DNA from: Phoronis australis
Lineage: Eukaryota > Animalia > Phoronida
Direction: 5' to 3'
NCBI GenBank assembly: GCA_002633005.1
Contig: NMRA01000415.1
Span: 1-64,000 of the forward strand
DNA length: 64,000 nt
A program made the position numbers and the translations under genes. The number at the start of each line of letters is the position of its first letter. Position 1 is the stretch's first letter. Under the pieces are notes generated by a model. That model made no database searches, had not been told where the DNA came from, and saw nothing but the letters and a program-made list of their open reading frames with translations. Positions 355 through 51,962 of this stretch are shown here, one piece after another.

Positions 355-449
355 ACAAACTTGAGCGCATATCTATATGAATTGTCGAAGTGGTCCTTGC
401 TGAAAGGGCAGACTTCAAAGACAACCCTGCGACTAAACATAGAAAACTG
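355..449 (+). pseudogene. ankyrin-repeat-like exon with a disabling lesion (..IVEVVLAERADFKDNPATKHRKL)
   Basis: Acceptor ttgctag|, donor CTG|gtaaga. IVEVVL..RAD resembles the ankyrin IVxLLxxGAD motif and ends in phase 0, compatible with exon X. It is 95 nt with TGA at 378-380 in the ankyrin-like frame; one extra A would give an open 96-nt exon. Confidence 0.45.
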
Positions 450-563
450 GTAAGAGTTCAAGCTACATTATATTTGATAACTCCGTGTGAATTGAAGCAA
501 TATGAGAATGGTTCGTTGCTCATTGATTTGCACGTTTACCTATCTTCGAATATCGACGAAAGT

Positions 564-862
564 CTTCGATTCATGTATAACTATTTCCAATTACTCATTT
601 GCAAACCTTCGATTCATGTATAACTATTTCCAATTACTCATTTGCAAACCTTCGATTCATGTGTAACTATTTCCAATTACTCATTTGCAAACCTTCGATT
701 CATGTATAACTATTTCCAATTACTCATTTGCAAACCTTCGATTCATGTTTAACTATTTCCAATTACTCATTTGCAAACCTTCGATTCATGTATAACTGTT
801 TCCAATTACTCATTTGCAAACCTTCGATTCATGTGTAACTATTTCCAATTACTCATTCGCAA
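564..862. repeat. 43-bp minisatellite, about 7 copies
   Basis: Unit cttcgattcatgtataactatttccaattactcatttgcaaac, head-to-tail with no spacers. Confidence 0.95.
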
Positions 863-9596: not shown

Positions 9597-9680
9597 GACA
9601 ATAAAACTGCTTTCGACGTTTGCGGGGAACGCTGTAGTAATGACAACTATGATGTCGAGAGAACGAAGACTATCCTTAAG
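9597..9680 (+). CDS. repeat exon type X, copy 1 (DNKTAFDVCGERCSNDNYDVERTKTILK), ankyrin C-cap-like
   Basis: tttacag|...AAG|gtaccc; 84 nt, open, phase 0-0; xTAxDxx motif. Confidence 0.6.
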
Positions 9681-9710
9681 GTACCCAATAAATGACAGTG
9701 GGTCAGACAG

Positions 9711-10110
9711 GTGTTAATACTGTGCAATGGTAACGATAGACTATTGTCATCTGGTCATACATTCATGAGGTGGAGCCACCTGTTTGTCACGTGTTAATAC
9801 TGTGCAATGGTAACGATAGACTATTATCATCTGGTCATACATTCATGAGGTGGAGCCACCTGTTTGACACGTGTTAATAGTGTGCAATGGTAACGATAGA
9901 CTATTATCATCTGGTCATACATTCATGAGGTGGAGCCACCTGTTTGTCACGTGTTAATATTGTGCAATGGTAACGATAGACTATTATCATCTGGTCTTAC
10001 ATTCATGAGGTGGAGCCACCTGTTTGTCACATGTTAATACTGTGCAGTGGTAACGATAGACTATTATCTTCTGGTCATACATTCATGAGGTGGAGCCACC
10101 TGTTTGTCAA
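9711..10110. repeat. 80-bp minisatellite x5 in the X-Y intron
   Basis: gtgttaatactgtgcaatggtaacgatagact... with period 80. Confidence 0.95.
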
Positions 10111-10458
10111 CAGCTACAATGAACCTCAATCAACTCGTGTTCAGTCCAATCATCAATTTTTGACTAGGACCACATTCGACGTATTTGATTTCTGACTTTG
10201 CCTAGAGCTGATGTTTTGTTAATCAACGAGACCACTTTCGGCCTTCAAAAAATATCGCGTCTTGACATGCCAGCTTGTAGTGCCTGGTCCCAAACCAACG
10301 ACTGTCAGCATTATTCTGAAGCCCTGAACTGATCGTCATCTAGACTAAGAAACAGTTTGCGCCCCAATATTAGTCACTACTGAAATTTTATTTATTTTGG
10401 TTTGCACGTTATACTATCAAGACAGTCTGATTAAAAGATATTCGAAACTCACTTCCAG

Positions 10459-10670
10459 AAACACATGAAACTGCAACAGGAACGACAAAGGCAAGGCTGT
10501 GCTTTTGAAGTTCGACATCCTGCCACGGAAGGAGCGACCTCGGGTTCACCTGACCAAACTTTAGTAGCAAATGCTGGTCCGACTGATGAACAGGTTGGTA
10601 CAGTATTCGACAGTTTTACGAAATCAAAAGGGAAAACCACCCCGTAGGCCGAGGAGGACGGCATCCTGGA
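10459..10670 (+). pseudogene. repeat exon type Y, damaged 3' end (stop at 10645-10647, donor mutated to ataagt); possible short form 10459-10593
   Basis: cttccag|AAA CAC ATG... homologous to the other Y copies; internal CAG|gttggt at 10593. Confidence 0.55.
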
Positions 10671-10799
10671 ATAAGTGATGTTCCGTCTGCAGCCATATCA
10701 ACAATAATGCAGTAGATTACAAAAATAACGTATCTGCATAGTCTCATCTGTTACATGTAATAACAAATGGCATTTCGCATTTCATGTTCAAAAATGTCT

Positions 10800-12720
10800 G
10801 CTCCTCCCAACTGACACAATTTCTCATGCCGTGCTAAATAAAATAATCTTAAACAGTAAAAGCGTCACACCCTCCTCAACAGGTGATATTTCGTTCAATC
10901 AAAGTATGTTGGTAGATGTAGCAGATGTTTCAATACCTGTTATCACAATGTCAGCCAATATTTGATGATTAAGGAGAATCTTAATGTTACGTCATGTTTC
11001 TTCCAAACCTCCTATGAAAACCAACAATATTTCAGGTATAAAACTGTTAAGCTGTTATTTTCTATTTCACACTCCAGCTTGTTTTGGGTAATTCTAGTCA
11101 AAGCAATTCTTTCACTTGCTTTCATGGAATATTGTCGACTTTGGGATGTTTTTCTTACGAGACATCAGTCTATTTTTCTGTGTTACACCTAACCCGTGGT
11201 TATTGAGGATATTCCCCTGACAATACTCACATAAAACATTCAATTTTTTCTGCAGTCCCTAACCACTATTGGAAAGTGAGCTAATCGTCAGCAAATGCAA
11301 TAAATCAGCTGATCCCATGCAAATTTCCTCACCGCGTCCAGATTTTAATTCTTGCACTAAATCACTTATAAATAATGCAAAATAAACAGAAACGGTGATA
11401 GCTGAGAGCCTTGTCTTAGACCATTCTGACAGTGAAAGAACAGCGTATAGCTCCCATTATCCAATCTCACGCACGCTTTTACTTCCGCGTAAATTGTTTT
11501 GATTATCCTATACATCTCACCTACTATGTGATTGTTCTTTATTTTCAAACATAATACACGTCTATAGATACTATCAAAAGCTGCTTTAAAATCCACAAGC
11601 ACAACAGAATCTACCATTCTCTCGTGACAAGTATTTAATTATCAATGTATATCACTCAAATATGTGATCCACTGTACTGTACATGTACTCTTTCCTAGAC
11701 CCAGATTGAGGCATAGCAATAACGTTTTCTCTTTCACACTACTTATGAAGCCGTTGGCATAATTTTTCTCGAAACTTTTGGCTGTGATTTGCACGATCGA
11801 AATTGTTCTGAAATTTCCAGGGAGATTGGCCCCTCCCTAAAATATTAGTACTGTATTAAATTTTATCTATTCGTTTGGAAACAGTCCATTTTAAAAAAAA
11901 ACAGTTATATAGATGAAACAGCAAGTACCAACTGTTTATCACCCTACTTGTAAAACTCAATGACAATTTTATCACATCATGTCGAACATCCGCGATAAAT
12001 ACTATTGATGGTTTGTATAATTTCATTGTTTGTGATGTCAGCGTCCAGCTCCATGTCATTAATAATGACATTACCTGAATTTTCACTTAACGAATATCAT
12101 TCAGTGAACTTTGGATTAGCAACGAAATAACGGCCCTCAAACAGAGCTGACATAAGTAATCCATTCGCCGGTTTAATGTTGTTTTTTACGGATTTCTTCT
12201 TAATATTAAAAGTGCGTCAGAATTTTTACTGTCTTTAGTCTCCACAGCTGACTTTAAGTTTATGTGGTGTTTCCTGTTACACTCTAACCGTATCACTTTT
12301 TAATTTTCCATAATTCCTTCTAGCATATACATATATAATTTAGCTAAAGCTTCCTCTCAGTATTCCAACACTGAATCTAAAATTACTTCATTTTTGCCTA
12401 ACAACAGCTCTCATTTACCTACATTCAGCGTCAAATCATTCGTGGAAACAAAGTGGAATATGCAAAATGTTTACTTTGGGTTTAAACATGTCGGCTACAC
12501 ACGATTCAAAGGTTTCTGTTAAATTTTCCACACGTGAATCTGTGACTGATCAACTTCCGGTCTCGTCCATTTTTTTGCGTACCTCAAACACATTTTTTCA
12601 TCCCATTTATAAACATTTTCAATCTGTTCATCTCGAGCCCAGTGGTTTCGCTGCGTCTTACTCATTCTAAAAACAATCATTAACAAAGTCTACATCCTCT
12701 GTGTAGTATTTTTATCTCAT
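10800..12720 (-). mobile_element. decayed non-LTR retrotransposon (LINE) reverse transcriptase fragment
   Basis: Minus-strand motifs in RT order: PGNFRTISI, PQSGSRK..STVDHIF, VDFKAAFDSI, GLRQGSQLSPFLF, AFADD, broken by stops and frameshifts. Ends are approximate. Confidence 0.88.
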
Positions 12721-13188
12721 TTCGTTGACAAAATTCTAATAAAAATGGTTACGATCCATATTAATACTATACAATGCTAACGATAGAATACGATCATATG
12801 GCCATTTTTTATGAACTGGCGCCACCTGTGTGTCGATTGATCCCCTTGAGCATCCACAACCTAGATCTCAGTGCAGGAAGCGAACTTTTGGATTGGATCA
12901 CGTTCCACGTATTTGTGAATGCGGAACGATTGCAGACTCCGGAAAGAATTGATCTTTTGTTATTCAACGAGGCCACGATCATAAAATAAATAACACCTCG
13001 TGACAAGTAAGCTTGTGGAGTGTGGTCTTAATGCAACAGCTGTCAGTTCTTCTGAAGCCCGGAAGTGATCATGAAATCGACTAATTTACACTTTACGCCC
13101 ACACCTGGCTCGCTGCTGAATTTAAACGTAATTTGATTTGCACGTTCTATTCTACGGACAGTGCAAACTAAAAGAAACTTATTCTCAG

Positions 13189-13395
13189 AAACGCATGGAA
13201 CTTGAACGAAAAAGGCAGGACTGTGCTGTTGAAGTTCCACTACGTGCCTTGGAAGGGGCAACCGCTGATTCATCCGACCAAGCTTTGCAAGCGAGTGCTG
13301 GTCCGGCTGAAGAACAAGTTGGAAGAGTACTCGAAAGTTTTAGCAATTCAAAAAGCAATATCAACACAGATGTTGAAGTGCACGACAAAGTAGAA
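13189..13395 (+). CDS. repeat exon type Y (KRMELERKRQDC...EVHDKVE), 69 aa
   Basis: ttctcag|...GAA|gtaagt; 207 nt, open, phase 0-0. Confidence 0.7.
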
Positions 13396-13514
13396 GTAAG
13401 TGAAATTCCCTAAAAGACGACGAGTTTGTTTTTACTTGGCCAAATAACTTTCGCTAAGCATGTTGCTTTGCCATCAATGTTGATTTCATGGTGCTTTGAC
13501 ACTATTTTTTGTTC

Positions 13515-14650
13515 TTTTTATGCGCCAACATATTCATTTGTGCACGCATTATGCCGTCATTTCCGTCCGACGTCCGTCCGGCATCAGGAGTCCGGCGTCT
13601 GTTGCTTTATCTCCAAAACCTTTTGAGGTATGTTCAATGAAATTGTGCACGTGTTCCTATCATGGATGGAACGGCATGAGCGAAACTTTCGGACGGTTCC
13701 GACTACCGGTGCGGAGGAGCTTTACTAAGTTTAACAAGTGTATGACTATGATGTTGACAATGGACGAATACCGGTGACCACCCTACTGGCAATTTTAGGT
13801 TTTTAGACTTACGTCTGTATCTTCGTATTTTCGTAAAATTCGTCGTAGTTTGCGGCACCTACTGTACTACCAAATTTACTGTTTTTGCGTCTGTTTTTGG
13901 CGTCTATTCCTCTACCAACCACACCGCTTCCAGGATGATTGTGAAAATTGGCATGTATGTTTCTACTATGAAGACGACGGCTTACGATGACTTTCCGACG
14001 ACTTTGGTTTCTGTGGGTCCTGCTGCTGGCAGTTTCGTTTTTGGGGCCTATGCCTGTGTATACTAACTCGTTTGCATGATATTTATTAAAATTTTCAAGT
14101 GTATTTAGTTGATACTGACTGCGGACGACGACTCTTTTAGGAAATATCTGACAACCACTTTGCCCCTTGTGGCAATTTTATGTTTTTATGTTAACTATGT
14201 TTCTTCAAAAGTCCTCAACGGATTTTCAAAAAATTTTGAATATGAGCATAATATTGGGGAGGTGACACTATCCTCACGTTGTCTGAAAGAATTGCTATAT
14301 TTTTCGGCATGTAGTGGACAAATTTGTTGTTTTCGAGTTAGTTTTCCCACCCATGTCTCTGTCAACCAAACCTCTCATAAGATGGTTTTGAAAATTTACG
14401 TACATCTTCTCAGTTTAAAGAGGACGGCTGACAATGAGGACTTGCATACCGTGGCACCTCCTAGTGGTAGCTTTGCTTTGTTTAGCGCCCAATGCAGGAT
14501 CTTTATTTAATTTAGTATGTGATGCTAACGACAGACAACGGCGACTTTCAGGCGGTTCTGATAAACACTGTGTCCCCTAGGCGCTATTTCATTTTATCAT
14601 GTTTTCCTTTGCCTGGTTGTAGTTTCTCGTTAGATTTTCTTTGAAATTTG
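13515..14650 (+). mobile_element. Helentron/DINE-1-like non-autonomous element (related copies at about 22410-23430, 28804-30450 and 31060-32500; fragments at 35256-35440 and 44570-44930)
   Basis: Starts in a T-run (ttttatgcgcc...gcattatg), followed by a (gtcc)n tract and degenerate internal repeats with ccccctagtggc / gaaattggca motifs. Boundaries are approximate. Confidence 0.5.
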
Positions 14651-15889
14651 GTGAAAAATCTTTCTATTGTTTTCCATTTTTGCATCATCAAGTGGCCATT
14701 TATAAACTACAAATACAATCTTAAAGTACACCATTTGCGGGGCATTCGTGGCCGCATTTAAACTCTCCCACTCGCTCTTGTTTTTGTTTGTCCGTACTCC
14801 ACATTGTACAGGTTGCATTTGTAGACTGATTCGTATGGAGTCTTCACAAAACCATTAGTAGTAGTAGACGCCTGCTGTTTTTCGTAATTTTTGAATTCAA
14901 ATGGCAGACATGTCCTCCATTTTGTCTTAGAATTCAGGTTCAACTGCTCATAGAGACGGTAATTTATGACGTAGGCAATTAAAAAACGGCACATTTATTG
15001 TTACTAACGTGTACTTCAAATACACTGGAAATCATTTACTTCCTGTTAAAGATAAAGGATATATCGACCATTGCATGCGACCCTCAATTTTGGAAAGGAA
15101 AGTTTTGTCCTGTAGAGAGTGCATTTTAGGACCAATTGCTTCCAAATATTTCATGTTGAAGTTTCATGTTGGATTTCGCACATTTTCATCCATTTTAACC
15201 CTCCTGCCGATTTGAATGAAAAGAGTAAATGACGTGGAATTTTGTGTGTAGATTCACTGAGGTATATTGTATCAAATGATTGGCAACAATTTCCTCTCAG
15301 ACTTACTGGTTTTGAGCCATTTGTCTTTGGAAATATTGAAAATTTTAAGGACTTTTGTTGAACTAATGCATCAGATAGAGTTTTGAAGGTTGTTTCTATT
15401 TGTCACAAACTTTAAATTATTTGAGATTTTCATTTGTCTAATGATTTTGCTGCACTTTTGGTGGTCTACCTTGCAATGAACAAGACTATAGCCTATTTCT
15501 TACTCCTTTAAGACAGCTTCTTTCGGCCCATGAATGTTATCATCGTGTTCATTATCGCCATTTTTATCATCAACTTCATCATCGTCATCATCATCTCCAC
15601 TGGGATATTTTCAGCTAATTTCACCAATACTCGCTACTCCGAGCGCTTTCATTGTATTCTTTATTTGATTTAATTCCCTGCAGTGTTAAGAACAATAATA
15701 CACTAGATTACAAAAATAGCGCATTTGCACCGTCTTTTTTGATAAGACCATTCATCATATCTCACACGTGTCACCGTTCTAAAATTCTACCGTCTTATCT
15801 TCTTGCTGTGTCCTATCAAATACTCTTTTCTATTTTACTCCTGCTTTTGTATCTGTCCATCATAAATACAAGTGTATCTTTGTTTACAG

Positions 15890-15967
15890 GAAAATGAAAC
15901 TGATTTCGACGTTTGCGAAGGACACAGTGGCATCGGCTATGTTAAGAAAATGAGGAATATATTAGAG
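15890..15967 (+). CDS. repeat exon type X (ENETDFDVCEGHSGIGYVKKMRNILE)
   Basis: tttacag|...GAG|gtaccc; 78 nt, open, phase 0-0. Confidence 0.55.
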
Positions 15968-16342
15968 GTACCCAATAAATAACTGTGCAATGGTAAAGAT
16001 AGACTAATATCATCTGGTCGCATTTTTATGAACTGGCGCCACCTGTTCGACAACTGATCTGCTTAAGCGTCAGTTGAAGTTGTGTTCAATCCAATAAGCA
16101 AATTCTTATTAAAACCACAGTTCACGTATTTGTAAAATTGCTTCCAACTTGTTCTGCACTTGGATGTGGAATCAATTCTGACTTGGCACAGAGCTGATCC
16201 TTTGTTGATCGACAATACCACGATATGACTACATAAAATATCACGTCATGAAAAGGTAGCTTGTAGAGCCTGGCCTTAAACCAATTACCGTCAGAGTTCT
16301 TTTGAAGCCAGTCACATTCAAATTGTCTAAGTAACAATTTAC

Positions 16343-16561
16343 GCAAACCTTCGATTCATGTATAAATATTTCCAATTACTCATTTGCAAACCTTCGATTC
16401 ATGTATAACTATTTCCAATTACTCATTTGCAAACCTTCGATTCATGTAGAACTATTTCCAATTACTCATTTGCAAACCTTCGATTCATGTATGACTATTT
16501 CCAATTACTCATTCGCAAACTTTCGATTCATGTATAACTATTTCCAATTACTCATTCGCAA
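16343..16561. repeat. 43-bp minisatellite, about 5 copies, at a segmental duplication junction
   Basis: Same unit as 564-862. Confidence 0.95.
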
Positions 16562-18215
16562 TCCTGAAACATGTTCAACTTGCATACACATAATCACAGT
16601 GCATTGATTCGTTAACTGTAGAGCAGTTCACCTGGCGGTGTTGTTATCGCCTAGCGAATGCTTACACTTCTGTAGCTTCGAATAGATTTCTACCAGCCGA
16701 CATGGATAGGAGTAAATTGGAAACATTTCCTTAGCGAGATTGACGGCTCTGTAACAAATTGGTAAACGATGACGTGTGTTAAAATTTATTGTTAAATGAA
16801 AAGTACTGAAAATATATCAATCGTTAAATAATACTTTAACGTGGATGATCGATTTTTAGTACATATGGAATATTTGTGCATTTTTCTTTGAACAAACAGA
16901 TTACATTACATTTTTTATGATGTCGATTTTCTTCTTGCACTTTTCTGACCCAGGCAAATACATTTGTTTAGAAGCTGGTGGATATAATGATGCCTTTAAC
17001 TTTATTTGCTAAACTGCTAGCTCTACCAGTACTTGCAGATCTCAGCAGACATCTTGTCCCAATGCAAGTGACAGATCTGATTGAAAAATACCAGAATACG
17101 GCAAACAGTGGGCTCTGTGTGAGAACGCAGACTGTTCGTTTTTCTATTAATCGAGTCTTCTGGGTCCCGAACAAACTGCAGTGGGTCTTCAAGACCTCCT
17201 GAGCTTTTAGTCAAACACCTTGATAAAGGGACAATTCTCCCATATTCACCGCTGAGTTGGAAACTGACCCATAAAAACATACTTAAATGTAGTTCCATCT
17301 GTTTTAACAGTTGGGGAGACCCTCCTTAGCCAGTTTCAAATAATCTGTTGATGGATTTAGAAAACAATTCCTATGATCTGCAGGTGAAAACTATTCCACA
17401 GGTGTTCCACTATAAACTCTAGCTAGGACCCACTAACCTCATGTTGCAGTTTGGCAAACAGGTGTTTTGTCAACTTGCAACATTGTGAATTGATGTGTGA
17501 AAGAAATTAATCGCACATAGGCGAGTTATTGCCACATTTGGGTATTGCTTGTTAGTCTATTTCCCCGATTGGGGTCCAGAGGATCGTACAATGTTGCTAG
17601 AGTGTAAAGGCAATTCCACCATTTCCACCCAAGATTATAGTCACTGCTTTGTATTATATAACAATTTTGATCACTCGTACATTATACGAAGCGGACTTGG
17701 ACACTGACAAGTGGTGCTTCGATTTGTGTCGCAGTCAAAACTCAGACGGCACGTTGATATTCTCAACGTTCCCTCTCAAACGTGTTAGATCCAAAAGTGG
17801 CCACAGACTTACTAAGTCCTACTTGGCAGTCTTTGGCCTCCAGTTTATATTTCAATTCGAACACAAATATTTTGAGAATTCGAGTAAAGTGTGAAGTTTA
17901 CAAGAAAGGTAATAGGATGTTAAGAAATATCCCACGAAATATCCACTTACACCTCTGGTTCGCTTGGTACATTTAAATCAATGGAAACAGCGGATTTTGA
18001 AGTAGATCATCACGATTTTTGTAGTTGTTTAACTTTTTTTAAAAATAAAATTCCAAGAAAACTTACCTCTTGCACTGTGGCCCACGCTTTCTAATCTCTA
18101 AATTCAGATACACTCCGATTGGCACTCAAACTTTCTCGTTGTTTATCAGGCTAAAACCGAAGTTCAAGTTGGCGGGCATTACAGGTATTATATCGTTTTC
18201 GTAAAATCCCTTACT

Positions 18216-18692
18216 TTCGAACGCGTAACTTATGGGATGATCAACTCGAGTTGAAGGCAATGTGTATACTTGCGTTACTTTTGAATGCGCAACTTACGGG
18301 ATTGTCAACTCGAGTTGAAGGCAATAAGTATACTTGCACTGAATTCGAATGCACAACTTATGGGCTGGTCAACTCGAGTTGAAGGCAATGTGTACAGTTG
18401 CGCTACTTTTGAATGCGCAACTTATGGGGTGGTCAACTCGAGTTAAAGGCAGTGAGTACACTTGCACTAATTTCGAATGCACAACTTATGGGCTGGTCAA
18501 CTCGAGTTGAAGGCAATGTGTACAGTTGCGCTACTTTTGAATGCGCAACTTATGGGGTGGTCAACTCGAGTTAAAGGCAGTGAGTACACTTGCACTAATT
18601 TCGAATGCACAACTTATGGGATGGTCAACTCGAGTTGAAGCAATGTGTACACTAGCGCTAATTTCGAATGCTCAAATTATGGGATGGCCAAC
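18216..18692. repeat. about 64-bp tandem repeat (7-8 copies), paralogue of 2520-2945
   Basis: Same unit with one more copy. Confidence 0.92.
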
Positions 18693-18756
18693 GCCAAAAC
18701 CTGAGTCGTTTTAATGATTTGATGATGATTATGATGTTCTTGTTGGCGACAACTTA

Positions 18757-33697: not shown

Positions 33698-33775
33698 GAA
33701 AATGAAGCTGCTTTCGACGTTTGCGAAGGACAACGTGACATCGGCTATGTTGAGAAAATGAGGAATATGTTTCAG
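33698..33775 (+). CDS. repeat exon type X (ENEAAFDVCEGQRDIGYVEKMRNMFQ)
   Basis: tttacag|...CAG|gtactc; 78 nt, open. Confidence 0.6.
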
Positions 33776-34229: not shown

Positions 34230-34442
34230 AAAAACATGGAAGTGGAACAACAAAGACAAGGTTGTGGTGTTGAAGGAGTATTAGCTGCCGTTGAACGAGC
34301 GACCGCTGGTTCCCCTGATCAAACTTTAGGTGCGAGTGATGGTCCGCATAAGGAACAGGTTGCTGTAATAGGCCTACTTGAACCTTTTACCAAATCAAAA
34401 GGCAAAACCATCACTGAGGGTGAAGCAGATGACGAAATAGAA
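34230..34442 (+). CDS. repeat exon type Y (KNMEVEQQRQGC...EADDEIE), 71 aa
   Basis: cttccag|...GAA|gtaagt; 213 nt, open. Confidence 0.72.
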
Positions 34443-36661: not shown

Positions 36662-36868
36662 GAACACAAAGAACCGGGAGAGCAAAGGCAAGGTTGTGCT
36701 TTTGAAATTTTACCGCGTGCCGTGAAAGGAACAATCATGGGTTCATCTGATCAAACTTTGGAAGCTAGTGCTAATCCGATTGTGGAACAGGTTGGTGCTG
36801 TACCCAAAGATTTTACCAAATCAAAACCCAAAACCATCAATGAGGGTGAGAGGGACGACAAACTAGAA
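36662..36868 (+). CDS. repeat exon type Y, last copy (EHKEPGEQRQGC...ERDDKLE), 69 aa
   Basis: cttccag|...GAA|gtgagt; 207 nt, open; not listed in the ORF track. Confidence 0.72.
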
Positions 36869-39588: not shown

Positions 39589-39706
39589 AATTCAAGCGAA
39601 AAAGAGGAAAACAGAAATAGGTGCAACAGCGCTCAACCCACCAACGATGCGAAAGGACATACTGTTTATCCTGATGTGGAAGAATTTGACGACATGGAGG
39701 GTCAAT
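39589..39706 (+). CDS. acidic linker exon (NSSEKEENRNRC...DVEEFDDMEGQ) joining the phase-0 repeat exons to the ZU5-like exon
   Basis: attaaag|AAT...CAAT|gtaagc; open, phase 0 to 1; the split codon T+GG gives Trp in frame with exon 40735. Confidence 0.7.
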
Positions 39707-42700
39707 GTAAGCGCCGTTTAGTATATTAATACATGTATGTTTAATGTCTCTATTGATGATTGTACATGGTCTGCTGCTGTCGTGGGTGTCGAGGCTCACC
39801 ATGGCATTGTTATCAATTCGACTGTCGTGGGTGAGGCTCGGGCCATGGCATTGTTATCAATTGGGCTGTCGTGGTTGTCAAAGCTCAATGGGAATAGTGT
39901 TGTCTCAGAACACCAAAATATACACCTGTAGTATTAAGATACCGTGGGTTTTTGTACACCCTGTGACCAGGGCTGTCGCTTAATATGATAGTGGTGACTT
40001 ATTAAACATGGTATTACCTGGTCAAAACCGTTGTGGTTGGTGACGTAATGCGATATAATTAATGTTCAATTCACAAGTGAAACATTCAACAACTGAGCTT
40101 CACATACATGAGTGTTTCCCATGAAAAATAACACGTTTTGATCCCCGACTTCCATTAATGGGTGAACTACTGTAGTAATAACAGCGTACAGTACTTAATG
40201 GTATTGCTAAGTTATCGTTATGTTCATTTTTGTATCAATTGATGGCTCTACATGGTAAACAGGATTATGTTTAATAATCAATGTAAACATCTAAATTTCC
40301 GGATGTGAAGCAATGTCTGTGAACTTAAAAGTTTTCTTATTAAAATATTGTTAACACTTCGCAGAAAATAAATAATCAACGGTGATTGACTCGCACAATC
40401 ATTTCAAAACAAAAAACGACGTTTAGTTCATTGTGCATGCATCAATCGTTGGAAGTTTCCTTCAATCATTTGTCAACGATCTTCCCTGTGTGAACCAAAT
40501 CACATTGCGCCATCATCTCGTGCACGTGTCACTGCACTTCATCAGATATTGCGTAACCGAATTCTGCCATTTTGTCAAGTGTTGCCTTAACGTTTGCACT
40601 TGTAGACAAAATCGTGTGGCCAGAAATAAAGTTGCCAACATTGATATCTCACTCTGTCAGTTAAATCCTCGCCTGCTCAAAACATTCCGCTCAGAGTACA
40701 TGTGCCCGCTATATTATTATGTAAAACATTTTAGGGACAACAGGACCATCTGACAATGCTCATGACGTCATTGGCGTAAAAGTGAAGGCTCCGGACAACT
40801 GCATTGTCAAAGTCAGATATCAAAGCTTTTCAAGAATCATTCAAGACAAGTTCAATGAAGGTGACGTCGTTATTCACCCACAGTACGTTTGTGTAAATCA
40901 AAATAAAAGCCACGAATTGTTGCAACCCTGCGACATTCGAATAAATGTGGAGTGGACACTAAAACAAATACCGCAAGGGAGTCGTGGTAGTTTTCATGTT
41001 TTATTGGCAGATCGTGATCAGGTGGATGATATCACAAACAAGTGTAACCCTCGCTTGGACGAAAACGAGTTGATAATCACCTCTCGTAAGAAAGGTGAGC
41101 ACTCAGCAGTATGGTGCCAACCTCAGAAAATCGGTGTAGTTATTTCCCGGATCAAAAGTACGTTCAAGTGCAGGTTGTGCTCTGTTGTTACCCGGGAAGA
41201 GACAGGTATGAAATTCCAAGTGGTCATCCATGCTCCCAACGTAGTGTGCAGAGGTGAGTGCAGCCACAAGTGTGATAGCGATGCCCCGATGACGATGGTT
41301 GACGGAACTGAAATTAAGGTTATTGCGGAGTTTCTGGACACAAAATCATCAAGAGACCATGTAAAAGTGGATCTTGGTTGCCTCACAATCGACAAGAATT
41401 TGTGCGAAGGAACCGGAATATTGCATGAAAAATTTCAAGATGGATCAGGAAGTACCGATGGTTCAGCCAGTTGCATTTTAATCGGGATGAACTTCTACTA
41501 CAAAGAACAACGCATCAAGAGTCAGATAGTGAAGGTAAGCATACCACCACGTGTTTGTAACCTGACAGTATTCAACACTATGACATTGATAATGTGTGTA
41601 ACTAGGTTTATGTAAGCGTGCTTTTGTGGCCGTAATGAGCGTATAATCATGACATTTATCTTGAGTAATTCGTAAATGGTAGTGTATACGTTTGGTAGTA
41701 CACTTGGAGTTCCGAGTTCAATGTGTAGTGTATACGTTTGGTAGTACACTTGGAGTTCGGAGTTCAATATGTAGTGTATACGTTTGGTAGTACACTTGGA
41801 GTTCGGAGTTCAATATGTAGTGTATACGTTTGGTAGTACACTTGGAGTTCGGAGTTCAATATGTAGTGTATACGTTTGGTAGTACACTTGGAGTTCCGAG
41901 TTCAATGTGTAGTGTATACGTTTGGTAGTACACTTGGAGTTCCGAGTTCAATGTGTAGTGTATACGTTTGGTAGTACACTTGGAGTTCCGAGTTCAATGT
42001 GTGGTGTATACGTTTGGTAGTACACTTGGAGTTCCGAGTTCAATATGTAGTGTATACGTTTGGTAGTACACTTGGAGTTCCGAGTTCAATGTGTGGTGTA
42101 TACGTTTGGTAGTACACTTGGAGTTCCGAGTTCAATATGTAGTGTATTCGTTTGGTAGTACACTTGGAGTTCCGAGTTCAATGTGTGGTGTATACGTTTG
42201 GTAGTACACTTGGAGTTCCGAGTTCAATATGTGGTGTGTACGTTTGGTAGTACACTTGGAGTTCCGAGTTCAATATGTATTGTATACGTATGGTAGTACA
42301 CTTGGAGTTCCGAGTTCAATATGTGGTGTATACGTTTTTATGTACATGTCAACCGATACGGGAATTAAGTTTGTTACGTATTTTGCCGATTCTATAGGAA
42401 AACGTTAGCATAACTTGGAACTCTGTTTTCGATATAGAGTTCATACATGTATATGTAGATGTATTTGTAGATGTCAACCAATACGGGTATACTTTGCCGA
42501 TTCTGTAATGCTATGGAGTAGCGCCAAAATAGGCATTTCCCAATGTTCATAATAAAGTTCTTGAACCTTCGCTTAGGCTTTTGCTGGCAGTTTTGTTTGT
42601 CGAAATACTCTAATATCACTAGTTGTGCTCTACAGAGCCAATGGAGTAACCAAAGAAACACTCACACAAACTATATCTACAGTAAGAGCCTCTAATAGGC

Positions 42701-45700
42701 AAGTACGTACAGTGTATATTTGGACTAGTTTTCGTCAGTGTTATGGTTTGTTATGTTTTTATGGTTGACATGCATGGAAGAATTATCATGGCTTTTTAAT
42801 GTTTTATTTTAGGCTGTACATTGATAGCGTAGCAGTGCTTGTTTGTGGTCCGCTGTTTCCCAATATTCGTTCATGTTATACATGTAGGTAAAGATTGATA
42901 AAAGTCGTTGTGTTATACTGCAATGCGCGCATTTTAGTCGAGTTCTTGTTTAAATTATCGGAGAACCCCTGTTTGTGCACAAACTTATTGAAGATATCGC
43001 TGTAATTATTCATATAATTGCAAGTCTTGTTCATTCATAAACCCTATTATCCAACGCAATTCTATATATATGTGCACGTCATGTTCATTCATAAACGCAT
43101 TATCCCCACCAATTCTTTATGTAAGCGCACGTGATAATGTTTGTCCGATATACAACACATTTTCCACGCTGCCTAAGGGGAAAACGGACAACTAAAGATG
43201 ATGTCAGTCACAGGAAAATGAAGTAATCCGGGGTAATATTGCCTCATTGTTTGTGGCAGGTTAACATTAGAATCATGCTTCACCTTCCCAATAAAGTGTG
43301 TGGTGAGAAAAGTGACAGTTTGTGAAGTATGTTTGAATGCCAGTGAATGACATAACAATTCAGTACTGACGATTAATCAGTTACCTTTTCTGCATTCCTT
43401 AGCTTGAAACGGGAACTTCAACTCCGTCCGTTGATTTGCAAGGCCGCGATCAAGACGAACAAGAGGTCATTGGTCGAGGTCACAAGCCACAAGAGCACAC
43501 GAGGAAACGTCAGGTAAATTGGTTTTCACCATAAATATCGAAGCCAATTTCACCCAGTGATGCACCAAGTTGGGACACGCCACAATAGGTGGAAATCCTT
43601 AATATTAGGCATCCCGTCGTGTGTTGTCACCTATTTCCCACAACCGACCTCCAGTTGCTCTTAATCGAGTAGGGTTTCCATCGTCATCGTAATTTCGATG
43701 TTCACACACCCCTTAGAAGTAGAACTCTTAGCACTGACATGACCACGGTATGGCTCTTCAACCAATGTACATGTATCTATATAGTACGCACTCTATATAA
43801 AGCTTTGTCTCAATAAGTCCATTAGTGAGACGTGTAACATTTTAAACGACTGCTTTATAGCACAAATAATCGTGTGTATTCAGCTTTGACTTCGAATCGT
43901 CAACTGCAATAGCTTATGTATTTCGCCCAGTAAAATTCCCCTATGCGACTCTTTAAACATCACATGTATGCTCCAGCTGTCGTGAACGAAGTTGAAACGA
44001 GAGTAATATCCGAAAAACAATGTTTTTAAACAACGCTTTAGATCATGTCTTTTCATCCGGTTACCAATCTCTAAGGTGGGGGCATATTCATTTTACTGTG
44101 TGGATAGATATATCTTTACTAATGATGCTGGTAATTGACCCGCTGTGTTATGTTGCATATTTGTGTAGAAAAAGCTGGTACTCACGTTCTCACATTGTAT
44201 GACTAGTTGGCTAAAAGCGGCGCTGTGTATTGCATTTTCATCCAATCAAAACGTTGGACATTGGGAAAGTACGTGATGTTGTATTGGTTACAGAAGTGAG
44301 TGGGGAAAAATAAGCATTGTACTGCTGGAACTATACAGAGTTTCAGATAGCTGTTAAAAACGTGGCAAGCATCAACAAATGTTTTTAATTGAAAAAAAAT
44401 TATTACCTTACTTGCTCATGTTATGACGTAATTTTGGTTTAAGATTTTTGGTCGTTTTTTCAAGTTTGCATACCTTGGAATGATCTGTAATAAATATTTG
44501 TAAAGTACCCTCAGTCCCAAGATTGTTGTCAGTCAAATTTCAATACATTAAACACACTCTTACTGTACATTTTATACTCACACATATACGTTTGTGGGTG
44601 CATACTGCCGTGATTTCGGTCCGGTCCGTCCGCTGCAGCTGTAAACGCCTTGCGGGATTTTAATGATATTGGTGAGATATCTCCCTGGGAAGCTGACGAC
44701 ACATGTAGGCGAGTTGTGGACCAATCTAATTACTGCTTTGCTCCTTAGTTGTCATTCATATTTCATTCAAGTACTTTCCTAACTGTTCTGGGACCATCAT
44801 GAAAGTGGACAGGAGTGTTGTTGCTGAGAAGAGCAGAGCATGAATCATGTTGATTCCCGTAGGGTTAGAACCTCCATGGTACCCCCCATGACAGTTTTGA
44901 TTCTGTGACTGTAGTTTCTAATCCCCTTACACTATTTTTGTAAAATCCAATTCCCAAAATTAGCCACATTCAAAAGTGAAAGTTCATGAAATGTGCACGA
45001 GTTAGTATCAACAAAGTTACGTTGTGCTTTTATGTAAAGCAATAGTTTGTGATGTGAAAGATACATGTTCAAAACACAACTGCATCTCTTAAATTGACAG
45101 ACGTGGTTTTATAAGCCCCCTCTCATCAGATTCTATATTTCTTTACAGACCATTGAAGGCCGAGCAACTGAGGCGGTTGGTAAGTTCATGAGGTCACACA
45201 CCACTGCTATAAATCACCTTTTTTCGCGACCTGATAGAATGCCATTTTTCACTGAAGGTTTGTCGTGTAATTCATTCAAAGCACCTGTTTACCACGCTTT
45301 GCATTTAGAGTTCAGAAATTTCCACACCCCGTGTACGAAGTTAAGTTGTTTCGGTGACTTCTCTCTCGCTGTGCCGTTGTAGGGAAAGGGAAAGAATAGA
45401 CATGTGCAATTGTGGCAAAGTGTGACTAGTTCCAGAGAGGCAGTACACTGGGACAAGAAGTGGTGTGACTATCAACCATTTTGAATGTCTATACACCAGT
45501 CTGTGAAAGGATCAAGCACAAATTCCTTCCTCGCTCCCATAATGGAAGATACACTTTTCAAGCAGCTTTTATGTGGAATTCCAATTGAAAATTGCAGGGA
45601 AATGGTAGATCGGATATCCCTTCTCCAATTCGTAATCTTTGCTCATTTTTCTGGTATAATTTTGCTTTTATAATGGTACTGTTGAATACACGCTCTGCCT

Positions 45701-48700
45701 TGATCCATGAAATGACCCTAAATCAAATCAAATTCACTGACCACCCAGTGTATGCCTTCATTAGACACGCAATACGCTGCAATTACATCCCATAGCGCGA
45801 ACATGTAACACCCTCATGCTTTTCAGTAATTCACACAATCATGTGTGTATCTTTTATGTTAAAGGCGTGTATCCAAGAACCGGTAAAGGTCTAGTTGTCC
45901 TTGTCAACAACATTAATTTTGATGCTGAAACAGATGAGGAGAGAGAAAGGCAAAGAAGACACGGTATGGTTTTGCTGTTAGCACTTTGTTTCAAAAATTT
46001 CAGTTGCTATAGCGGAAAATGAATGACATGAGTTAACGATAAATGGTGATATACATGTAGAACGGCTATCAAGAACCAATGTATTAAGGTCACTTGGAGT
46101 TCTGAAACAGGTCTCAAATTGATTGCAAATTCAGGGTTTCGAAACAACGACCGCTAGTGTAGTTTATTTCAATGCACTTCGAACGATCCCAGAACTTAAA
46201 ATTCGAAGCCATGATGTCACTTGGAATTATATTAGTTGTTTTGGAGAAGTAACGAATTTTCAGTACTTTGGGAGCCCTGAAATTTACCTCTAAACTGAGT
46301 GAAGAACAAGATTAGACATGGTCCAAACCCAAACGTGTTTTTAAGTGAATGTACTGGTTTAATGCCACTTGGAGAGGTGATTATTCCCAAAACTTTGTTG
46401 ATTACAGGAGTTGTCAAAGCAACACACTTTCACGTTTTGTATCTGACGACAACACCATACCTTTGCTTCTGACGGTACAGATGCTAGTAAGCGTGAGATA
46501 TGTTAAAGAGTTTCAAATCTCAAACTATTGTTGAAAACAGACCGAATATTCTTGTGTTAATTTTAGGCTTCAAAAATCTTACAGGTTCCGAAAAAGATGA
46601 AAAAATGTTGCTGGAAACGTTTACAAGATATTCAGCACGATACGACGTTTTGTGTGGCAATGACTTCAACAAGGAAAAAATGAAACTCAGACTTAAGTTC
46701 GTGCAAATGAAACTCAAAACCGAAACATACAATCAACTCATCTTCTTCGTACTCTCACATGGTGAAAAGGTGAGTATTATTGACCACTACAACTGTACAG
46801 TAATTCAGGTTCATGTACATGTACATCCGTAATGCGTGAACACATCTACTACCACAAGAAACTGTAGGAACACCGCATTTATCCACCTTCACTCTTATCA
46901 GGCTTCTGTTGTGAGTCAGCATGTGTGAAAAATTGGCTGATAAGCCACCTCTGGAACTACTTTTGGCTGAATGGATGACCAGGCCATAATACTATAATTA
47001 ACCAAGACCAGTTAACTAATGCATTTTACTCGTACATGTACTCGGCATGCATTATGTCTGTGTAGGTCAAAACATTGATATCAGAGTCAACAAGTCAATA
47101 CTGGACATCAACGTTATTCCGTGTGCTGCGAAACGCTGTAGTAATATACCTTTAAATATTTCTGAATGAACCTAATTAAATATCCAGTCACTGAAATGGT
47201 TGCCTATCCCAAAGCAATTAAATTATATACACATGTATTTAGGATTGTTAAACTTGGAATTCCAAATGCGAAGTGGGGTAAATCATGGATGTTTTCATAC
47301 AAAATAGGCCTTTTGAAATCGACATGCAATAGTAAAAATGGTTTATTGTAAACAGTTAACAAATGGTTTATAAGGTCCGGACTGAGAGGGTCATTGATGT
47401 ATTACGCCCTGTGAGTTTTGGATAGCCAAGCCTGGAATGAATGTTGTTCAGCGACACTGGAAAATAAGTTTCATGCTTGTTGTCAAAGGCACATTTGTTA
47501 TTTTTTAAACCTGTGTAGAGTACAGGTGCATGAATATATTAATGTAACACATGAGGGCATAAGATTTAACATTATTCACAGGATGGCATCACGACAACTG
47601 ATGGACACCTACTGCCATTTGGAGACATATGTAAATACTTCCGGGGAGATGAAGTACAAAGAATGAATAGTACGTACATGTTCATATATTTACTCACCAC
47701 CTAAAACTCAAATTACGAAACACCTCACAAAATACATCCTTTTGTTCAATTTCTTCAGACCAGTTATCTATCAAAATGATGATGCACACTCATCACAATT
47801 GTTTTAAATGCCGTGATGAACAACTGATTCCATTCCCATTTAGGTCATCCGGGTGTTTGGCAAGTAAAGGGGTGCTAGCATACGATAGACTCAAAAGTGG
47901 TTGTGAACTTTTCCATCATAATTCATTTCATTGGTGGAATGTAGTTGCTATGGTGACATGATACCAGTGCAGCATGTAGCAAATCGCCCTTTTCCAAAAG
48001 TTCAACGTTTAGCCTGTAAATTGATGTCTGAAGCTCTTTTACGTCATTTTGACAAAACTGTCGAATGCCTGTCATGTTGATGTTTGTTCTCAAAATGGCT
48101 ACGTTGAACGCACTGTATGTAGAAATTATTTACCAGTTCGTGTAATGCTCATGTTCATTTCAGAATTACCGAAAGTGTTTATGTATCAGTCTTGCCGTGT
48201 CACGGGACCGGATAGAGCATCCAATGCTTCATGTATTGAAACCAGAGACACAACAAGCGACTATGTTATGGATCAACCACCTGATGCTCATATGCTCACG
48301 GCATACGCCACGACTGAAGGTGAGCTTCTTAAAACCCCATACCAAAAGACCATGTTTGCCGCAAGCTTGCAGCAAACATGCCGCAAGCTTGCGGCAAACA
48401 ATTTTGTTTTCAGCAAACCAGCCGCAACGTTTGCAGGAGTTTGCCGCTACCCGCAGCTCACCCGCACACATTGCCGCAACCTTGCTGCAAACACTGAAGT
48501 TTGCAGGAATGTTGCAGCAAACTTGGGGATTGAACAAGTGTTTGCGGGAAAGTTGCAGGAAACTTAAGAGTTGAAAAGTGTTTGCAGGAAAGTTGCAGGA
48601 AACTTTATTGATGAAAAAGTGTTTGCGGGAAAGTTGCAGGAAACTTTATTGGTGAAAATGTGTTTGCGGGAAAGTTGCAGGAAACTTTATTGGTGAAAAA

Positions 48701-51700
48701 GTGTTTGCGGGAAAGTTGCAGGAAACATTAATGGTAAAAAGTGTTCTCAGGAATAGGGGAAAAAGTGGTGGCACGATATTTGCAGTAAACTTCAATGTTT
48801 AAAGTTTTAGCATTAAGATTGTGACAATGTTAGAAATTGTGAAATTGTTTTTTTTATTTTCTGAATTTCAAAGAAACCTCAAATCCCAGAACCTAAGCAG
48901 GGCAATTACTTAATTTAGATTACTTACCTAAATGTGACCTATTGTTGGGTGAGTTACATTGTTAAAAACAGCAAATGCTCAAATGTCAAGTTACATGTAA
49001 CCAGTTCTTCAAAATAATCACATAATTGAGACTGTAAAACTTAAGTTTGTGTCAATTTTCACATCGCTCTCTGACTGTTTGATTCACTATAGGAACAACA
49101 ATTTTTTGTTTTGGTTAAATACATGGCAACTATTGGGCACAAAATAAGATTAGATTTGTGGAAAGTGATATGGCATTCATATTTTATGTTTGTGAATATT
49201 GAGTGACCTAATGTACTTGATGAAAGCCAGAAACATTGCAGAGGTTATGAGGCAACGAGTTTGAGTTGAAAACACCGGAACAAATGGCGTAAACAGCATC
49301 TCAAAGTTGGTTCGAACAAACATGGATGAAAACACTAGCGATCATCCCATATGAACTCTATGGAACACCTACGATTGCTGTAATGCAGATTAGTCTGGAG
49401 TAGAATGTGTTTAGAACGTCCACTAGTATGGTTATAACTGGATATAACCTCTGTAGTTGTTCTTTTCAACACCATAGTAATATTGTAGAATGGAATTTAT
49501 GATTTATGTTTGATGTCTTAGATAAATGAATGATGTTATTGGATGATATCGCTATAGTCGAAATATTGCAAATTTCAACAAAGGCTTACAAGTTCAATGA
49601 TAGCCCATTCAGTAGACTGATGTATCATGAAACCATATTGGGAAGCAAAAATAGTAATCGATGAAGTATTCGACATTTTTCAAGTATTTTAGATGAACAT
49701 GGGAAAAATAAATATGTTCATAATTGTTAAGATTGATTTTTTTCAGTTGACAAGTAATGAGGTTATTTAAAATAAAATGCTTAAATATGCTCGACATGCT
49801 GTTCTAAGCATGCCTTTCTACGGGGGAAAGTCAAATTTCATGGTTTTCTATACTGGCATTCGACATATTTTGCGCCAGTTTCAATGCTAATAAACACCCC
49901 GTTTGTGCATTTCAACGCTCTGTGTTGCTGTTGTTAGTTTAGTCAGTTAAATAACATCGTTGTTGCAATTACTACAGATTTTGTCGTGCGTTAAGAATAA
50001 AACATCTAGGTATATTGTAATTAAAGCGTGCATACATTCAAGTTATTCTCTCAAGACACAACTTTGATTGTATTACAAGTATTATTACTAATTGCCACTG
50101 TAGACACTTTTATAGTTTCTGTTATTCATTGTCATGTGATTTTGTTTTCATTTCTAGTCATTATACATCAGATTGAAAATTATCATGTTAAATCCAGTGT
50201 GCAGCTGATTGTTGCTTTAACAAGCGGGCATGCAATAAAAATTATGTAGTTGTCAGCTGGCATTTTTGCATTAAATTATTCATGCCACAATTCAAGTATG
50301 TTGTAGTCTTGCAGCAATATTTTTTCTGGTATTTCGCAGAAACTTTTATATAACCCATGAAGGTGTTTGCGGCAAGCATGCAGCAATGTGTGCGGCTAGG
50401 TTGCAGGAACTGTTCCATATAAGGACATAGAGATGTTTGCGGCAAGCTTGCAGCAATGTGTGCCGCTGGGTTGCAGGAACTGTTCCATATAAGGACATAG
50501 AGATGTTTGCTGCAAGCTTGCGGCAAACTTCATTTGCATGGTAAAAGTTTGCTGCATGTTTGCAACAAGCATGCGGCAAGCATGCAGCAAGCTTGCGGCA
50601 ATGTTTGCAGCTGTGTTGCAGGAAATTTGCATCCACTCTTTGGTCAGAGTTGATTCTACGTGCTTGCCGCTGGTTTGCAGGAACTTTTGCAGTAAGCTTG
50701 CCGCAACTTTGCGGCAAGCTTGCGGCAAGTGTTTGTAGGAAGGCCTTTTTTGGTATGGGACACTTTTGAAAATCCGTTGAAATCAATCGTGTGGGGCAAC
50801 TCCGAATCAAAGTACTGCTATGTCAATGGCAAGATGATTCAACCCCGGTAGACTTTGCATTGAGCATTGTACCCAAACCTTGAATTGGAGTGATTGTCAA
50901 TCGGGGAAAGGACTTGGAGTGTGCACCCTTCAGTGCATTTTCTGGTTCTGCTCCATCTCAACGGGCATCACGTGGAAATACCCTGACACCTACATGCATA
51001 AGCTGGCATACCTGTAGTATGATATAGATCCTTAAATATGAAAGAAGGACCCTAGCCTATTTGTGCTGACCTATCTCTTTGGATTTCAAGTAACTTTTTA
51101 GAATGAGAATAGCAACGACTAAAAATAGCAAACCGCCTCACCGGGTTGCAAAAACACAATTATCAAGTACATAGTACAAGTATACTCTTTGGGCATACAC
51201 TTTCGATGAACCATTTCTGGAAACATCAAATTATTTGCAGTTTTATGCTTGCAAAATTGTATCAGCTGGCGTACCACGGCAGGGAATGGGGCACGACGGG
51301 CCATTCCCTTGTTTATTGCTAAATACCTCTCCCTTTGTTCACGTTTGCCCTAACTTTGTTTATTGAATATTGTAACCGAGCCAATGGCCTTAGACAACAA
51401 CCACTTCGCGTTTGCACCCCCACCACACCTCTTTGTAATCGGAAAGAGAATGTTGGAACATTGATGACACAGTGCCTTGCTTCAAATGTTCCCTTAAAAA
51501 TATGTGTTGGATGGTGTCTTGGCAAGACGGGGACAATTTAACTAATATGCGTTCATTTTTACATACAAATACATGCAGTTTTCAAAGGAGTGCGTCATTT
51601 ATCAACAGGGTTTTAATGTTTAATATTTGCATGTTCTGGTTTTATGAACATGAATTTCTTCAATTTAATTGTTTGCAGGTAACGTTTCGTTCCGAACCCA

Positions 51701-51962
51701 TGAAGGGACGCCCTACATAACCACACTCTGTAAAGTAATCAAAAAGTACAGCGCACATCATCATCTAGAAGACATGCTGAAGATTGTCAATAACATGTTG
51801 TCTCATAGGAAGTTTATGTATGGAAGAAGATTCGCTTTTCAAATGCCAGAATTCAAATCCACTTTGACACGTCACATGTTCATACACAGTGAACACGTAA
51901 ATCGGTCAGATTTGTATCCTGTGTACACCTGTCCTCACTGCAAAAAAGAGCTCACAACTTGA
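39589..51962 (+). CDS. 3' part of a multi-exon caspase gene (linker - ZU5/UPA-like domain - linker - caspase p20/p10 - CxxC tail), 9 exons, 623 aa + stop
   Basis: Exons 39589-39706, 40735-41534, 43403-43513, 45149-45179, 45865-45963, 46585-46769, 47582-47669, 48164-48319 and 51679-51962 all have AG/GT boundaries. Their phases chain consistently (0-1, 1-0, 0-0, 0-1, 1-1, 1-0, 0-1, 1-1, 1-stop) and sum to 1872 nt = 624 codons with no internal stop. Caspase motifs GLVVLVNNINF, RHG, LSHG, PKVFMYQSCR, YATTEG, SFR and QMP..STL appear in the correct order. Confidence 0.85.
40735..41534 (+). CDS. 800-nt exon encoding a ZU5-like followed by a UPA-like beta-rich region
   Basis: Longest ORF in the window (40782-41615); acceptor ttttag| at 40734 and donor AAG|gtaagc. 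Motifs GVKVKAP, FNEGDVVIHP, LLQPCDIRI, VLL..DDIT and ELIITS..HSAVW follow the ZU5 order GV.L.IP / L.EGE..VSP / F.KPV.L.I / W.DIT / V.F.T.HFS. The domain call is by eye only; the exon itself is well supported. Confidence 0.6.
41679..42337. repeat. 46-bp minisatellite x about 14 in the intron after the ZU5-like exon
   Basis: Unit agtgtatacgtttggtagtacacttggagttccgagttcaatgtgt. Confidence 0.97.
43403..43513 (+). CDS. linker exon (LETGTSTPSVDLQGRDQDEQEVIGRGHKPQEHTRKRQ)
   Basis: Pyrimidine tract ttcctt ag|, CAG|gtaaat; 111 nt, open, phase 0-0. Confidence 0.75.
45149..45179 (+). CDS. 31-nt linker micro-exon (TIEGRATEAV)
   Basis: tttctttacag|ACC...G|gtaagt; supplies the phase 0 to 1 shift needed before the first caspase exon. 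Confidence 0.75.
45865..45963 (+). CDS. caspase exon: start of p20 (GVYPRTGKGLVVLVNNINFDAETDEERERQRRHG)
   Basis: aaag|GC...ACG|gtatgg; matches the caspase RG.xLIINN..F.....R.G pattern, including the S1 Arg. Confidence 0.9.
46585..46769 (+). CDS. caspase exon with catalytic His (GSEKDEKMLLETF...LIFFVLSHGEK)
   Basis: acag|GT...AAG|gtgagt; SHG motif after a hydrophobic strand. Confidence 0.92.
47582..47669 (+). CDS. caspase exon (DGITTTDGHLLPFGDICKYFRGDEVQRMN)
   Basis: cacag|GAT...A|gtacgt; fits the G.I...DG......I...F....C..L consensus and bridges the phases of both neighbours. Confidence 0.88.
48164..48319 (+). CDS. caspase exon with catalytic Cys (KLPKVFMYQSCRV...IETRD...DAHMLTAYATTEG)
   Basis: tttcag|AA...G|gtgagc; PK.F..QxCR motif, intersubunit linker and start of p10. 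Confidence 0.93.
48336..50759. mobile_element. 2.4-kb non-autonomous TIR DNA transposon (CACTA/EnSpm-like) in the last caspase intron
   Basis: TIRs cccataccaaaa / ttttggtatggg; 2-bp TSD AC (48334-48335, 50760-50761); dense subterminal gcaagcttgc-type repeats at both ends; internal about 42-bp and 70-bp repeats; no transposase ORF. Confidence 0.8.
51679..51962 (+). CDS. terminal caspase exon: p10 (GNVSFRTHEGTPYITTLCKV...HLEDML...QMPEFKSTL) plus C-terminal YTCPHCKKELTT tail
   Basis: ttgcag|GT; p10 consensus S.R...GS.FI..L...HL.D.L..VN...QMP...STL; stop at 51960-51962. Confidence 0.92.

Follow-up and report, generated by a model that had tools for sequence, protein, structure and literature searches.

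How does a caspase come to lie, on one strand and in one reading frame, behind a repetitive linker and a beta-rich domain that family models fail to recognize? The locus that raises this question occupies positions 355 to 51962 of a 64,000-nucleotide (nt) stretch of DNA from the phoronid Phoronis australis (GenBank assembly GCA_002633005.1, contig NMRA01000415.1, positions 1 to 64,000 of the forward strand). This stretch, hereafter the window, is animal-like DNA of 38.8% GC with four single Ns. An earlier account made from the letters alone, the sequence-only reading, took the locus for a one-chain gene of ankyrin repeats, a repeat linker, a ZU5-UPA module and a caspase, with no death-fold domain. 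The gene is real, expressed and fast-evolving, and its product is probably a caspase preceded by a beta-rich prodomain of no recognized class, for which ZU5-UPA is the likeliest identity. The reading we prefer, to which we give a probability of about 0.5, is that an expressed linker of X and Y exons and a module of 266 amino acids (aa) run in frame into the caspase, the prodomain being probably a ZU5-UPA module that does not cleave itself. All exons discussed are on the plus strand.

The open frame is carried by nine exons between 39589 and 51962. AG..GT borders are found throughout, the phases are compatible, and with the acceptor at 46585 the exons encode 623 aa closed by one stop, as the sequence-only reading had stated; AATAAA is found at 52716, downstream of that stop. 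Three of the five caspase exons match Peptidase_C14 of Pfam when scanned singly: the large-subunit exon with the catalytic His-Gly (46585..46769, E 3.3e-5), the exon with the catalytic QSCRV and an Asp-rich inter-subunit linker (48164..48319, E 0.054), and the last exon, which holds the small subunit, SFR, a CxxC tail and the stop (51679..51962, E 5e-8). The exons at 45865..45963, with the first strand of the fold, and at 47582..47669 give no Pfam match singly. Profile positions 18-83, 119-168 and 172-232 are matched in exon order, spanning the large and small subunits. Among PDB chains the last exon is closest to caspase-2 (E 1.5e-4) and also matches caspase-6; the small-subunit scores, 25.2 bits for caspase-2 vs 22.9 for an ancestral caspase-6, are not decisive. 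For the Cys exon there is a gapless alignment to caspase-7, at E about 1; the His exon finds nothing in the PDB. The catalytic dyad is present in the 623-aa model (SHG at residue 444, QSCRV at 486, with Val where Gly usually comes after Arg). Both S1 arginines are present as well, R385 from exon 45865 and SFR at 533, which we take, by the usual caspase numbering, to be the equivalents of Arg179 and Arg341. These matches and motifs identify the C-terminal region as a caspase whose catalytic residues, as far as sequence can tell, are intact, and the earlier claim of an intact C-terminal caspase holds. The predicted product is likely a long-prodomain initiator caspase.

Word-index searches with the last exon and the His exon, which covered longer proteins only, found no relatives, so the caspase is a divergent one. 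An amphioxus caspase with a QSCRG motif kills cells, according to a passage of PMC3196919. Two in-frame acceptors 18 nt apart, 46567 and 46585, score alike (7.5 and 7.9) on a splice matrix that is crude, its training set being 9 acceptors and 10 donors with the scored sites included. Use of 46567 gives 629 aa and replaces the Arg179-equivalent, which 46585 keeps. We rejected the 629-aa form as the main product because the S1 Arg is lost; an isoform of this kind could be inactive or changed in specificity. The tail beyond the caspase fold, at 51920-51959, is short and contains one CxxC, resembling one half of a zinc finger (Pfam DUF7575, E 0.14).

Are the linker and the module expressed, and are they expressed together? 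Reads from three raw RNA runs chosen by species label (X1 to X3, about 18-19% of each) and a contig set (X4) were mapped to 33400-41670. Read depth rises over the X exon at 33698..33775 (26 aa), the Y exons at 34230..34442 (71 aa, internal donor 34358) and 36662..36868 (69 aa, alternative donor 36790), the linker exon at 39589..39706 (phase 0 to 1), and the 800-nt exon at 40735..41534, which encodes the beta-rich 266-aa module with its 13 Cys. On the exons nearly all first mates map to the minus strand, the pattern that plus-strand RNA gives in most stranded libraries. Six GT..AG joints are found, with the following reads in runs X1 and X2 respectively: 33775>34230 (7 and 1), 34442>36662 (7 and 8), 34442>39589, which skips Y36662 (2 and 3), 36790>39589, from the internal donor of Y36662 (7 and 5), 36868>39589 (12 and 4), and 39706>40735 (20 and 6). 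The X and Y exons therefore share a transcript with the 800-nt exon; exon skipping and the use of an internal donor make the linker variable. In this the earlier reading was correct, both in placing these exons on one transcript and in predicting the junctions 36868>39589>40735. Run X3, at a depth of about 1x, has none of the six joints, and the reads suggest that expression of the gene is tissue- or condition-specific. All three runs belong to one study, in which X1 and X2 reach 10-20x. The 800-nt exon shows signs of coding constraint: 7 of 18 changed codons are synonymous vs 21% expected (40 of 151 difference rows), and the raw-read indels within it are +3 and +6. Most of the mapped reads fall on a short interspersed repeat at 35259-35398 and have loose ends on both sides, marking a high-copy element present in other transcripts.

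Does this transcript continue into the caspase, or are there two adjacent genes, a linker-and-module transcript that ends after 41534 and a short-prodomain caspase that begins within 41535-45864? The donor at 41534 scores 11.8, the highest in the gene, and an X4 contig matches 41387-41534 and ends its match exactly there, its further 28 letters lying elsewhere; the donor appears to be in use. The reading frame remains open up to this point and ends there in phase 0. Within the interval the acceptor at 45149 ranks first of 239, and its predicted 31-nt linker exon (45149..45179) starts in phase 0 and ends in phase 1, as exon 45865 requires. Between them is a second predicted linker exon, 43403..43513, which is phase 0-0 and optional, the frame staying open without it; its donor ranks 14 of 398. 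Exons 43403, 45149 and 45865 all lack an in-frame Met; to be a separate gene, the caspase would have to start in a further, unseen first exon. The phases thus chain unbroken across a gap of just 4.3 kb on one strand, and from phase and splice-site scores we consider the join 41534>(43403)>45149>45865 likely.

What, then, is the module? We favour a diverged ZU5-UPA at somewhat better than even odds, the remainder being divided equally between an OB fold and something else. The case is made by eye, in a register set against the printed alignments of ankyrin-2 ZU5B/UPA and FIIND (PMC8195603 supplement file 2, part 121). Over about 165 residues, unscored, the order and spacing of strands are those of ankyrin-2 and FIIND. 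From G12 to C52 the module runs without gaps against the FIIND rows, and the segment QVDDIT...C127 runs without gaps against ankyrin-2 QWEDIT...C, with 6 of 33 residues identical, which is not significant alone. The next two strands come in UPA order, KFQVVI fits the second UPA strand, and the length of the module fits ZU5 plus UPA.

Several observations weigh against a single chain that runs from the linker through a ZU5-UPA module to the caspase. At the join, no reads back the step from 41534 to the caspase exons, mapping having ended at 41670; three AATAAA signals lie in the interval, at 42551, 43290 and 44489; and the acceptor at 43403 is weak, ranking only 79 of 239. The same points favour two adjacent genes, and chimeric gene models are a known hazard for such caspases, as part of PMC11463336 describes. 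Set against the strong and apparently used donor, the unbroken phases and the exons that lack a start codon, they leave the two-gene alternative improbable in our view. Most reads match the window at 90-95%; they would stem from a different allele or from a closely related paralogue, and may well be paralogous. No relative with the same domain layout was found in homolog searches, and the mechanism proposed below is argued by analogy only.

The module adds its own difficulties. Pfam finds nothing in it at E<=10, NCBIfam has no family for it, and phmmer returns no match among 1,835,955,588 representative proteins; a word-index search with the 800-nt exon (again longer proteins only) and a metagenome contig search gave no relatives. 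Scored support for ZU5 or UPA is thus wanting. ZU5 profiles built from bacterial loci, in 21- and 90-sequence forms, score the module at z about 1, with 51 of 100, 47 of 300, 83 of 500 and 435 of 500 shuffles as high. As a control, the 21-sequence form detects ankyrin, ZO-1 and UNC5B chains of the PDB at E 1e-14 to 2.5e-5; a FIIND chain is absent from its 11 PDB matches. Single-sequence AlphaFold2 models of the module have predicted local distance difference test scores of 31 and 38, too low for meaningful fold searches. One would expect blank searches for the ZU5-UPA superfamily, because even FIIND has an HHpred probability of just 48% against UNC5B, and of 36% against ankyrin-2, in the part of PMC8195603 that compares them. 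The ZU5/UPA label that the sequence-only reading gave to 40735-41534 accordingly stands on the register read by eye, and drew nothing from Pfam, phmmer or the profile scores. ZU5-like domains are themselves frequent in the bacteria sampled, occurring in 102 of 201 genomes of one phylum (E<=1e-5), many with an HFS-type motif.

Two other identities for the module must be weighed, in both of which the fusion is real. The ESM Atlas lists OB-fold clusters for the module, not ZU5, and an archaeal OB profile scores it better than the ZU5 profile does; these too weigh against the reading we prefer. Might the module be two OB folds of the RPA type, the latter carrying a zinc ribbon, such that single-stranded nucleic acid clusters or tethers the caspase? 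The top named Atlas matches are OB clusters at 0.85-0.91. The profile, made from 147 archaeal domains, matches residues 38-61 at z 2.65, a score equalled or exceeded by 9 of 500 shuffles and 16 of 486 decoys, and the module has a Cys cluster, C145xxC148...C171xxxC175. The Atlas recognition value is 1776, however, against a guide of 2300, and shared features are 122-144 of 256 against a guide of 170. The profile match is a motif of 24 residues (HMMER E 0.046, one sequence), and the whole-domain alignment drops the central OB strand. Builds of the profile differ, the first giving z 0.89 and the second z 2.5-2.65 (7-9 of 500 shuffles, 16-18 of 486 decoys), and a p of about 0.02 is modest, given that several profiles were tried. 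A zinc-ribbon OB profile built from 58 archaeal sequences gives the Cys-rich second half a shuffle-level score (z 0.2-0.35), and no Pfam OB family matches the module. We regard OB folds as an unlikely identity; were the module OB-like, the gene would be a candidate nucleic-acid-coupled caspase.

The module might also be some other or new beta-sandwich, for instance a galectin-like one, and the gene a further lineage-specific caspase whose prodomain is unusual. No family or homolog was found for the module, its best PDB sequence match is galectin-7 (residues 59-121, E 0.066), and the caspases of annelids and amphioxus often have unusual prodomains, as the portions of PMC11463336 and PMC2575513 that treat them describe. 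On the other side, galectin-7 chains alone are matched and Pfam finds no galectin, while the ZU5-UPA register covers about 165 residues. The galectin-7 similarity itself was rejected, being to one protein only, and we give a different beta-sandwich about as little credence as the OB folds.

If the module is ZU5-UPA, does it cleave itself? The HF/S of PIDD and the SF/S of CARD8, at the end of ZU5, are autoproteolysis sites, as a passage of PMC3210808 describes. In the register read by eye, and provided that the register is right, KKG (residues 118-120) stands at this place. A mechanism like that of CARD8 or PIDD is thus unlikely, since the HF/S motif is absent from the ZU5 register, and the suggestion of a CARD8/PIDD-like autocleavage switch is not borne out. 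An SFS tripeptide, the sequence at which CARD8 and NLRP1 are cleaved, occurs early in the module at residues 30-32 (40824-40832); it lies outside the expected ZU5 position and is probably there by chance.

Nor does a death fold appear to intervene. In the gene model only 47 aa separate the module from the caspase with exon 43403, and 10 aa without it. At E<=0.1 none of 68 plus-strand open reading frames of 36869-45864, a tandem repeat at 41680-42340 being excluded, matches a death domain, CARD, DED or ankyrin repeat. None of 58 frames of 1-9596 matches any of these at that threshold, the test being weak for short exons. We rejected a hidden death-fold exon on the scan of 36869-45864, with the same weakness for short exons, and the earlier statement that the gene has no death-fold domain agrees with these results.

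How might such a protein work? The PIDDosome consists of PIDD1 with RAIDD and caspase-2. We propose, tentatively and at rather less than even odds, a PIDDosome in a single chain: a ZU5-UPA module whose death domain gave way to an active caspase, with no death fold and no adaptor. To this the proposal adds, with the same reserve, an exon-duplicated, alternatively spliced, disordered N-terminus that would act as a tunable tripwire. In the resting state ZU5 would hold UPA closed. A ligand, a partner or a cut in the long disordered linker at the N-terminus might set UPA free. By associating with itself, UPA would next bring the attached caspase domains together and let them dimerize by induced proximity, and the clustered caspases would process themselves at the Asp-rich inter-subunit linker without an adaptor such as RAIDD or ASC. 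Signalling by CARD8 and NLRP1 is promoted by UPA self-oligomerization, according to parts of PMC7794386 and PMC11874512, and the disordered N-terminus of CARD8 must be degraded, according to part of PMC7594595. The degradation route is unlikely for the phoronid protein, because it needs the autocleavage that is apparently missing here; release through a conformational change, or through another protease cutting the linker, would be likelier than N-terminal degradation of the CARD8 type. A role in innate-immune or stress-triggered cell death seems likely. As for origin, exon shuffling would be the most likely route, by which a caspase replaced the death domain of a ZU5-UPA-death domain gene like those of ankyrin, UNC5 or PIDD.

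The N-terminal region has a complicated history. Upstream of the read-backed exons lies an array of X/Y cassettes (9597..30894), each copy of which can be read as a phase 0-0 exon. In all there are six X exons of 26-28 aa (9597, 15890, 19479, 24679, 26512, 33698) and nine Y exons of up to 71 aa (10459, 13189, 20263, 22084, 27016, 28519, 30766, 34230, 36662). The sequence-only reading had every upstream X and Y exon end in phase 0. This is so for all six X exons, which also start in phase 0, and for the long form of five of the nine Y copies, where the frame is open; of the remaining four, two are interrupted by stops when read in the long form and the other two have no distal donor, and they end in phase 0 only by way of the internal donor that all four keep, the one used by reads in Y36662. 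The single Ns at 21942, 25130, 30572 and 31664 are all at the ends of duplicate blocks that are 94-97% identical. Because these blocks begin or end at Ns, some of the array may stem from haplotypes that were not collapsed, and the X/Y copy number may be inflated. Clearly diverged types number about three for X and six for Y. A composition rich in E, G, A, K and D suggests that the linker is disordered; Y34230 is acidic and rich in small residues. Duplicated along with the block are two 90-aa open frames on the minus strand, at 11369-11638 and 21180-21449, which by their motif resemble fragments of a non-LTR retrotransposon reverse transcriptase.

Ankyrin repeats at the N-terminus, also part of the sequence-only reading, find no support. 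The candidate upstream exon at 355..449 (95 nt) has good splice signals, and ankyrin-like words occur in it, split over two frames and parted by the TGA at 378-380; its sole open frame ends in phase 2 and does not fit the X exons. Pfam ANK is found in none of the X exons, exon 355-449 or the 58 open reading frames of 1-9596. A 19-sequence ANK profile gives the expected register, yet in ten tests of the ankyrin frames and X exons 32-271 of 500 shuffles score as high, 32 of 500 being the best case. We rejected 355-449 as an intact ankyrin exon on the in-frame TGA and the shuffle-level scores. An ankyrin N-terminus is thus unsupported, and such repeats could lie upstream of the window.

Elsewhere in the window, 58660-59760 and 62403-63743 form a duplicated pair, 72% identical. 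Neither strand of the pair has a long open frame, and nothing in it resembles the caspase gene; the two blocks were rejected as paralogues of the module, tblastn giving no match at E<=10. A 205-aa open frame on the plus strand, 55470-56084, has no Pfam match.

Is the architecture new? General background is given in parts of PMC3482391 and PMC11508797. Full-text literature searches, which extended neither to the supplementary tables of PMC11463336 nor to bioRxiv supplements, returned no ZU5-UPA-caspase. In the supplements of PMC8195603, taken without file 13 and with file 4 in part, neither ZU5+caspase nor UPA+caspase occurs as a string; caspase is found in none of the 14 ZU5+UPA places shown, and 17 of 139 caspase places are covered. 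To this extent the sequence-only reading, which did not recognize a named family in the architecture, stands. The wider novelty of the architecture is reduced, in that death-fold-free fusions of sensor and caspase are already described in portions of PMC2575513 and PMC11463336: TNFR- and LRR-caspases of amphioxus in the first, and in the second ANK caspases of parasitic flatworms and Alitta and annelid caspases with kinase, TIR, ROC, Z-binding and subtilase domains.

We know of no vertebrate ZU5-UPA module that reaches a caspase other than through death-fold filaments. A direct ZU5-UPA-caspase fusion, if true, would be a natural test of whether UPA clustering alone activates a caspase, and a new type of prodomain among the immune caspases of invertebrates. 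Whichever fold it has, the 266-aa module, with no relative in 1.84 billion representatives, marks a fast-evolving, unannotated class.

With which known system should the phoronid gene be grouped? It resembles the invertebrate caspases that lack a death fold in that a sensor or scaffold is fused directly to a caspase with its catalytic residues, and in lineage-specific domain shuffling; it differs in its prodomain, as neither ZU5/UPA nor OB is found among those described in the sections concerned of PMC11463336 and PMC2575513. From the ANK and other invertebrate caspases it is set apart by a duplicated, alternatively spliced linker ahead of the module, and ankyrin repeats are not supported. With ankyrin, UNC5 and PIDD1 it shares the probable ZU5-UPA register seen by eye, and the best PDB match of its small subunit, though not a decisive one, is caspase-2, the caspase of the PIDDosome. 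The rows of the non-cleaving ankyrin-2 and UNC5B printed in PMC8195603, like this module, have no HF/S at the end of ZU5. Unlike those proteins, this one would have no death domain, a caspase in the same chain and one ZU5-sized unit, and its likeness to them goes undetected by scored search. As in CARD8 and NLRP1, a long N-terminal stretch, here likely disordered, comes ahead of what is probably a ZU5-UPA, and the FIIND rows of PMC8195603 are similar in loop spacing over the module's first 40 residues; in contrast, here there is no SF/S at the end of ZU5 in the register, a CARD is absent, and the chain carries its own protease. Finally, among the shuffled ZU5 and TRADD-N proteins of marine invertebrates, the portions of PMC8195603 that describe them list ZU5+ZU5+GT4, TRADDN+ZU5+ZU5+UPA and TRADDN+CASPASE, so that ZU5 modules and caspases appear there, as they probably do in this phoronid gene, as shuffled parts fused to enzymes.

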